Shown: piece after piece, positions 2 to 509 of the stretch
Position numbering within the stretch: the first letter of the stretch is position 1
Layout: the number at the start of each line of letters is the position of its first letter
NCBI RefSeq assembly: GCF_013167455.1
Contig: NZ_CP038328.1
Source of the DNA: Escherichia coli O157:H7
GTDB taxonomy: Bacteria > Pseudomonadota > Gammaproteobacteria > Enterobacterales > Enterobacteriaceae
Direction: 5' to 3' (one strand)
Length of the DNA: 64,000 nucleotides
Program-made: the position numbers and the translations under genes
Notes under the pieces: model-generated
Database searches by the model: none
Told to the model about the DNA's origin: nothing
What the model saw: only the letters and a program-made list of their open reading frames with translations

Positions 2-472
2 CAGAAAGGGGGGCAGATTCGCTGCCGCTTTAAGGTTTCGGGAGCGCTGGCTGCGAACCAGTATGTTATGGCGTTTTACTGGCCGGTATCTTCACTGCCA
101 CAGGGCGTTGCCCTGACCGGAGACGGGGGGAATAACCTGCTGGCAGCGTTCTACATCCAGACAGATGCAAAAGACCTGAATGTGATGTACCACAATGCGA
201 AAGTGGCGACAAACAACCTGAAACTGGGAACCTTTGGCGCATTTGATAACGAATGGCATACGCTGGCTTTCCGCTTTGCCGGGAATAACAGCCTTCAGGT
301 GACGCCGGTTATTGATGGTCAGGATGGCACACCGTTCACGCTGACGCAGTCACCGGTCAGTGCATTTGCGGCGGATAAACTGCATGTGACAGACATTACC
401 AGGAATGCGACTTACCCGGTGCTGATTGACAGCATTGCGGTGGAAGTGAACAGCACAGACACTGCGGCATGA
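2..472 (+). CDS. C-terminal part of a larger phage protein (open to the left window edge); beta-rich, possibly lectin-like domain, as in the large ORFs found upstream of lysis genes in lambdoid prophages
   Basis: Reading frame open from position 2 with no stop until TGA at 470-472; ORF track 68..472 is only the portion from the first ATG; product assignment is a guess. Confidence 0.45.
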   Translation, partial: QKGGQIRCRFKVSGALAANQYVMAFYWPVSSLPQGVALTGDGGNNLLAAFYIQTDAKDLNVMYHNAKVATNNLKLGTFGAFDNEWHTLAFRFAGNNSLQVTPVIDGQDGTPFTLTQSPVSAFAADKLHVTDITRNATYPVLIDSIAVEVNSTDTAA

Positions 473-480
473 TAAAAAAA

Positions 481-509
481 CCGCCAGCGACAGGAATGGA
501 CGCTGGCGG
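481..509 (-). terminator. Perfect 9-bp stem hairpin (CCGCCAGCG / CGCTGGCGG) with an A7 run on its 5' side on the plus strand, i.e. a U-tract terminator if read on the minus strand
   Basis: Inverted repeat at 481-489 and 501-509, A-run 474-480. Confidence 0.3.

Follow-up and report, generated by a model that had tools for sequence, protein, structure and literature searches.

Esr41 is an Hfq-binding sRNA of approximately 70 nt that represses chuA, cirA and bfr, acting at their ribosome-binding sites (PMC8065619), and that additionally affects the LEE and motility. PasA and PasC were found in EPEC by RIL-seq and Northern blotting, and their stability is dependent upon Hfq (Pearl Mizrahi et al. 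2021). PasC, of 79 nt, is tabulated in that study on the minus strand of NC_011601.1, from 1290909 to 1290832, with a 5' end estimated by its authors from RNA-seq coverage and the size of the Northern band. The arrangement of an esterase gene, a Pas sRNA and a holin gene was described by Zhu, Shabalina and Storz (2026), who remark in passing that cmscan often reports 'Esr41' near PasD, upstream of the esterase gene. In the 2026 Pas survey, PasA was present in no more than 25 phage genomes and PasC in a single one. Esr41 and the orphan RNAs EcOnc51/52 are also included in Table S2 of Tree et al. 2014. The last 220 or so residues of the esterase form a solved, lectin-like jelly-roll domain that has been proposed as a carbohydrate-binding module (PDB 6YP6; PMC10462455), with Y510, Y515, Y540 and F611 proposed to bind sugar (PMC10462455). 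A 2026 preprint describes the whole protein (phi24B gp84) as a capsid decoration protein anchored to the capsid by its DUF1737 domain.

The window, by which we mean the whole stretch of 64,000 nucleotides that was analysed, begins within such an esterase gene. The features at its left-hand end are as follows.

2–472, plus strand: 3' end of a gene for a sialate O-acetylesterase of the NanS-p type, corresponding to residues 490–645 in the numbering of the 645-aa Stx2a-phage protein
473–557, minus strand: predicted Esr41-family sRNA gene of about 82–85 nt, with a predicted 5' end at about 555–557 and a predicted 3' end at about 474–478
474–480, minus strand: U7 tract of the predicted terminator (A7 on the plus strand), 6 to 9 long among copies
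480–510, minus strand: predicted terminator hairpin with a perfect 10-bp stem (8 G-C pairs) and an 11-nt loop
521–532, minus strand: U-rich putative anti-Shine-Dalgarno seed UUUUUUCUCCAU, predicted single-stranded, with the core UUCUCCAU in common with Esr41
562–567, minus strand: predicted -10 box TTAAAA (TAAAAA with an 18-nt spacer), conserved across variants
585–590, minus strand: predicted -35 box TTGACA, fully matching the consensus and situated 19 nt upstream of the start codon of DUF1378, which is on the opposite strand
609–788, plus strand: DUF1378 gene, which bounds the sRNA slot on the right and is followed by the lysis cassette

Frame 2 of the plus strand is open from base 2 through a TGA at 470–472 and encodes 156 residues, in agreement with the suggestion of a sequence-only reading that the window opens inside a large ORF. 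These residues matched Pfam DUF6645 (E = 3e-75). The full ORF in a phage of 100% identity encodes 645 aa with the domain order DUF1737, SASA, DUF6645, an order shared by the full-length proteins of which the window itself holds the DUF6645 domain only. Residues 72–393 of the 645-aa protein match E. coli NanS (3PT5; E = 3e-117), residues 423–640 are identical to PDB 6YP6 'NanS-p' at 217 of 218 positions (E = 4e-140), and all four aromatic residues of the proposed sugar site are found. What the ORF encodes is the lectin-like domain at the C-terminus of a prophage esterase of the NanS-p type. The carbohydrate-binding tail that had been suggested from the translation is thus borne out by DUF6645 and the jelly roll of 6YP6, the domain search on full-length relatives returned both lectin and esterase similarity, and the gene for this large three-domain esterase does, as had been supposed, follow Q and precede the lysis genes in a lambdoid prophage. 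The protein is already known and this part of the locus brings no novelty.

The first 1100 bases of the window are 100% identical to three Stx2a-converting phages and approximately 99% identical to VT2-Sakai and VT1-Sakai, where the gene carries the annotation SASA-family carbohydrate esterase, yjhS or NanS. The genomes with an exact 9-kb match to the window are chromosomes of E. coli O157:H7 in which the upstream order is Q, three tRNAs and a 648-aa DUF1737/SASA/DUF6645 protein, and from which stx is absent (e.g. L213, NZ_CP066753.1). Identity to an Stx2a phage (L002, LC645417) extends over window positions 1–3246 and ends at base 3246. The end of this identity, together with the lack of stx in the exactly matching genomes, indicates that the window's prophage is a non-Stx lambdoid prophage with an esterase-sRNA-lysis module in common with Stx phages.

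Several other elements were observed further along the window. A region of 450 bp between Rz and the small terminase gene (3367–3820) is without a convincing gene and contains a CATCATCATCAT run, a promoter-like site on the minus strand (3684–3655) and a weak PrrF-like match; identity between the window and Sakai Sp9 stops at 3562, and EcOnc10/11/12 lie beyond the point where the two diverge. The weak Rfam matches to PrrF (3556–3696) and to snoZ30 (777–859) were taken as chance. Two OrzO-P antitoxin RNAs, which belong to the zor-orz type I toxin-antitoxin system, scored above the Rfam gathering threshold on the minus strand at 35721–35796 and 36332–36405. A TPP riboswitch on the plus strand at 60946–61042 also exceeded the gathering threshold, and the surrounding region is for this reason probably chromosome past the end of the prophage.

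The arms of the hairpin beyond the esterase stop lie at 480–489 (ACCGCCAGCG) and 501–510 (CGCTGGCGGT) and are 100% complementary across an 11-nt loop. The hairpin had been described as a perfect one of 9 bp; the stem is indeed perfect, and its length is 10 bp, the G/C-rich core of 9 being closed by a tenth, A-U pair (A480–T510). An A7 run begins one base past the esterase stop and overlaps the inverted repeat by one base (474–480), such that on the minus strand U7 directly follows the stem, the strand to which the U-tract had been assigned from the outset. The structure thereby has the GC-rich stem followed by a U-tract of at least 6 that characterises a Rho-independent terminator. The plus strand beyond the stem reads GGTAATACC, without a T-tract, and a terminator read from that strand was ruled out on these grounds. 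When both strands were scanned for a perfect stem of at least 9 bp with a loop of 3–12 nt and at least 6 T in the following 7 bases, two such sites were found in the window (480–510 and 18563–18584) as against a mean of 0.025 expected by chance, the latter determined from 40 first-order Markov randomisations of the window. A consensus scan saw merely a 5-bp sub-stem at the hairpin because its loop limit is 8 nt. The minus-strand RNA from 555 to 472 has a predicted folding energy of -22.9 kcal/mol (z = -4.3 relative to shuffles). The stem core CCGCCAG/CUGGCGG did not vary in 20 family members; with 7 of 8 pairs never varying, no covariation was detected in the stem among these members, an invariance by which covariation counts say nothing for or against the structure. 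The A/T homopolymer ranges from 6 to 9 among otherwise near-identical copies (L007–L206). The other perfect terminator, at 18563–18584 on the plus strand, lies just before the J ORF and about 85 nt from a PasB-like element.

The position of the hairpin recalls that of a known sRNA. The esterase stop codon in NC_011601.1 is at 1290830, and the 3' end of PasC is thus 2 nt away on the opposite strand; a TTGACA is found 30 nt before the PasC 5' end. That leftward transcription would end at the window's hairpin, as the sequence-only reading had it, fits both this placement and the anatomy described above. In the window, TTGACA likewise stands 30 nt upstream of the predicted sRNA start, separated by a 17-nt spacer from a weak -10 box in which the conserved final T is missing, the reason why a consensus promoter scan passed over the site. 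With a conserved, predicted promoter some 80 nt to the right and an Esr41-like body between, the hairpin would be more than a lone terminator; together these parts are predicted to constitute a whole small RNA gene, one that was absent from the sequence-only reading. On the plus strand, window positions 531–545 read ATG GAG AAA AAA TAA, a 4-codon mini-ORF with an internal GGAG that is the complement of the sRNA seed, and the complement of Esr41 yields a similar one (ATG GAG AAA ATG TGA). The mini-ORF probably has no meaning of its own.

In an Rfam scan run at a permissive threshold, the Esr41 model (RF02676) matched the minus strand from 549 to 472 over model positions 1–74 of 74 with 29.6 bits (E = 0.009), a score well short of the gathering score of 102 bits. 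A covariance model (R1) was constructed from 20 phage-slot variants with Esr41 excluded from training. R1 scored the window copy at 96.7 bits and recovered the true SpLE1 Esr41 over the full model length at 24.6 bits (E = 1e-3), while PasC scored 11.1 bits (E = 1.5) and PasA itself gave no match. Since Rfam matched the window and R1 recovered Esr41, the similarity is reciprocal; as measured by these two models it is weak yet specific. The predicted window sRNA has the architecture of Esr41, namely a 5' hairpin, a single-stranded UUCUCCAU region and a GC-rich palindrome followed by a long poly(U), and the seed core UUCUCCAU was invariant in alignments A2 and A3. Its location is different: Esr41 is found in SpLE1/OI-43/48 near iha and the ter genes, and the window sRNA between the esterase gene and DUF1378. 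A weak R1 match also brought to light a PasB-like sRNA at 18400–18480 on the minus strand, between tail assembly gene I (17718–18395) and J, with 82% identity to the PasB region of E2348/69 and a terminator (CCCGCAGCUCCGC..CUGCGGG followed by U7) in common with it.

Taken together, these data suggest, with a probability that we put at about 0.7, that the hairpin and U7 are the Rho-independent terminator of a leftward sRNA gene whose product would be an Hfq-binding, trans-acting relative of Esr41. Published datasets were searched for its expression. None of the 63 orphan Sakai sites in the Hfq-crosslinking Table S2 of Tree et al. 2014 is at the site of the window sRNA, its sequence had no match in the searchable portions of the RNase E-CLASH supplements, and the StxS paper holds nothing on the window's locus. 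In Sakai a copy of the cassette is present in Sp5 (NC_002695.2, 1272086–1272170, minus strand), and Sakai's Stx1 phage, VT1-Sakai (Sp15), shows 99% identity in the first 1100 bp; it is a guess that reads from these near-identical copies may have been lost as multi-mapping. The absence from the Sakai list and from the CLASH supplements searched would also be compatible with a stand-alone element without a discrete sRNA, whether an insulator that stops stray antisense transcription or a hairpin that protects the 3' end of processed esterase mRNA. The hairpin does adjoin the stop codon and would form in plus-strand RNA too. This explanation is nevertheless quite improbable. The plus strand has no T-tract after the hairpin, and an insulator or stability element leaves unexplained the conserved minus-strand U-tract, the perfect -35 box at promoter distance, the conserved UUCUCCAT core and the reciprocal matches with Esr41.

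The distribution of the cassette was examined using the tail of the esterase protein as sole bait, with which 80 viral contigs were fetched. The intergenic regions of these contigs fall into five types, A to E, which differ in RNA body and loop. All five keep the A-run and hairpin directly after the esterase stop as well as, spaced as in a promoter, TTGAC[AT] and either TAAAAA or TAGAAA immediately ahead of the DUF1378 start. As the variants were recovered through the protein alone, the sample is unbiased for the RNA. A scan with the Esr41-like core pattern added types F, G and H, giving a total of 45 distinct RNA sequences, among which several different sequences come after the U-tract. The cassette is present in 233 phage records (Stx2a, Stx1a, Stx2c and others), 217 of them with 95–100% identity. 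Of 5426 complete E. coli genomes, 762 carry it, the median copy number being 2. Canonical Esr41 was found in 694 genomes. No RNA feature is annotated at the cassette. Given the 25 phage genomes with PasA and the one with PasC, set against 233 phage records here, the cassette was evidently not counted as a Pas variant in the 2026 survey. A literature search that did not extend to Sudo et al. 2014, the original Esr41 paper, returned nothing naming or studying an Esr41-like cassette.

The Sakai chuA leader reads CCUCAUGGAGAA at the Shine-Dalgarno sequence, positions -17 to -6. The number of contiguous base pairs predicted at this site was as follows.

B-type phage variant: 13 (UGAUUCUCCAUGA)
Esr41: 12
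Variant A_L073: 11
F type: 9
Window allele: 8 (AUGGAGAA, positions -13 to -6), about chance level

The family seed fits chuA, a validated target of Esr41, and the window allele is the weakest fit. PasC, taken as a control sRNA, reached 6 bp with chuA and 8 bp with bfr, and the duplex energy of the whole body at the chuA ribosome-binding site was equalled by 27% of shuffles. Pairing with bfr was ambiguous, use of the seed not being shared, and was set aside. At the chuA Shine-Dalgarno sequence the B-type cassette (L049, L065 and others) outpairs Esr41 itself, by 13 bp to 12.

A true Esr41 relative might have fallen silent or be decaying in the window allele, through a promoter too weak or a seed that has drifted, such that the hairpin is a relic. 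The poor -10 box (TTAAAA), the shortest chuA match of the family (8 bp compared with 9–13 bp) and the absence from the Sakai list of Hfq sites are in keeping with decay. We nevertheless regard it as unlikely, since the cassette is 95–100% identical in 217 of 233 phage records and recurs nearly unchanged in hundreds of genomes, and the promoter boxes, seed and terminator are intact, with the differences falling mostly in the 5' part and the loop.

From the fit of the family seed to chuA we infer an Hfq-dependent, trans-acting, anti-Shine-Dalgarno sRNA of the lysogen. A sigma-70 promoter (-35 TTGACA from 590 to 585, a 17-nt spacer, -10 TTAAAA from 567 to 562) would start the RNA near 555–557, and the transcript would end in the U-tract at about 474–478, just short of the esterase stop, with the gene convergent to that of the esterase. 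The resulting RNA of about 82 nt is predicted to comprise a short 5' hairpin, the single-stranded U-rich seed UUUUUUCUCCAU, a small hairpin, the GC-rich terminator and a U-tail, a layout that would be that of Esr41 and of Hfq-dependent sRNAs generally. Most likely the U-tail would bind Hfq and the anti-Shine-Dalgarno seed would pair with host mRNAs at their ribosome-binding sites, in the manner of Esr41 on chuA, cirA and bfr. The RNA would be made in the lysogen, late transcription being off, and the terminator may have a second role in keeping leftward transcription from entering the esterase gene in antisense.

The RNA may also act in cis, as an antisense to the late transcript. For about 85 nt the predicted RNA is a perfect complement of the late mRNA, its promoter and the ribosome-binding region of DUF1378 overlap, and RIL-seq placed both esterase mRNAs of E2348/69 among the partners of PasA. 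These observations could accommodate an RNA that acts mainly in cis, antisense to the esterase-DUF1378 transcript and not on host mRNAs in trans, either by directing cleavage or by interference of convergent promoters with late transcription. As the main mode of action this appears very improbable, for the conserved part is an anti-Shine-Dalgarno seed in common with Esr41, which is trans-acting and resides in a quite different locus. Neither mode precludes the other.

A broader reading can be offered tentatively, with the balance against it. According to this, the 3' end of the esterase gene would be a slot for the exchange of sRNA cassettes, in which the promoter and terminator would be constant and the seed exchanged, and the window allele would be an expressed, Hfq-dependent Esr41 paralogue that tunes iron and haem uptake through chuA, cirA and bfr, and perhaps the LEE and motility too. 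The same allele would then serve in most Stx2a, Stx1a and Stx2c phages. Were it true, Stx phages would encode, in addition to AsxR, a further riboregulator directed at the host, with the chuAS operon as a target of both, and Esr41-like control would reach strains without SpLE1.

The importance of the trans-acting Esr41 relative proposed above is modest: a relative of a virulence-linked sRNA appears to be unannotated in most Stx-converting phages, and the cassette is present in approximately 14% of complete E. coli genomes, often in at least two copies. If it is expressed, studies of Esr41, of prophage sRNA networks and of how EHEC regulates iron and haem have overlooked paralogues, mapping-based screens may have dropped the near-identical copies, and the slot would represent a case of sRNA evolution by replacement of the seed between a fixed promoter and a fixed terminator.

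Compared with the described systems, the esterase itself is a three-domain enzyme like NanS-p (933Wp42 / vb_24B_21 / phi24B gp84), and differs in that the gene of the exactly matching genomes encodes a 648-aa paralogue in an stx-free prophage, of which the window keeps the last 156 residues only. The AsxR and AgvB anti-sRNAs of lambdoid prophages are likewise encoded by short genes, convergent with the late operon and on the strand opposite to it, in the 'moron' region downstream of PR', and have a conserved 3' part and a variable 5' part. They differ in lying upstream of the esterase gene, in their length of 51–60 nt and in sequence, and they are sponges for host sRNAs as opposed to acting at ribosome-binding sites.

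The window sRNA is flanked by a SASA esterase gene and the lysis genes, is encoded on the strand opposite to them and has its predicted 3' end at the esterase stop. This is the slot and orientation of PasC and PasA in EPEC E2348/69 and of EcOnc52/51 in EHEC Sakai, where the terminator likewise adjoins the esterase stop and a TTGACA promoter stands at an equal distance. PasA occupies the esterase slot of another prophage, where a second, shorter cassette adjoins the esterase stop; this short cassette recurs in Sakai Sp4 as the Hfq-crosslinked EcOnc52. The terminator stems have GCCAGCG/CGCUGGC in common, whereas the body and seed of the window sRNA are unrelated. With the terminator stem as the only part similar to PasA or PasC, identification of the window sRNA as either was rejected. 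EcOnc52 was rejected also, being a different variant of the same slot located in Sp4.

Esr41 (RF02676; EcOnc14) belongs to the E. coli O157 island SpLE1/OI-43/48, downstream of iha, and the window sRNA to a lambdoid prophage. The order of parts is the same in both: a 5' hairpin, single-stranded UUCUCCAU, a small GG..CC hairpin, a CCGCC.GC/GC.GGCG terminator and U7. Promoter geometry is also common to the two, TTGACA being as far from the Esr41 5' end as from the predicted 5' end here, and TTGACA-17-TTATAT in Sakai SpLE1 corresponding here to TTGACA, a 17-nt spacer and a TTA-type -10 box. The window sRNA is approximately 10 nt longer, its 5' hairpin and loop differ, and its seed reads CCAUAGGU in place of CCAUGGGG, a substitution that brings the chuA match down from 12 to 8 bp. 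Judged by these likenesses, the hairpin most likely belongs to an Esr41-family sRNA that has gone unannotated in the slot of PasA and PasC.
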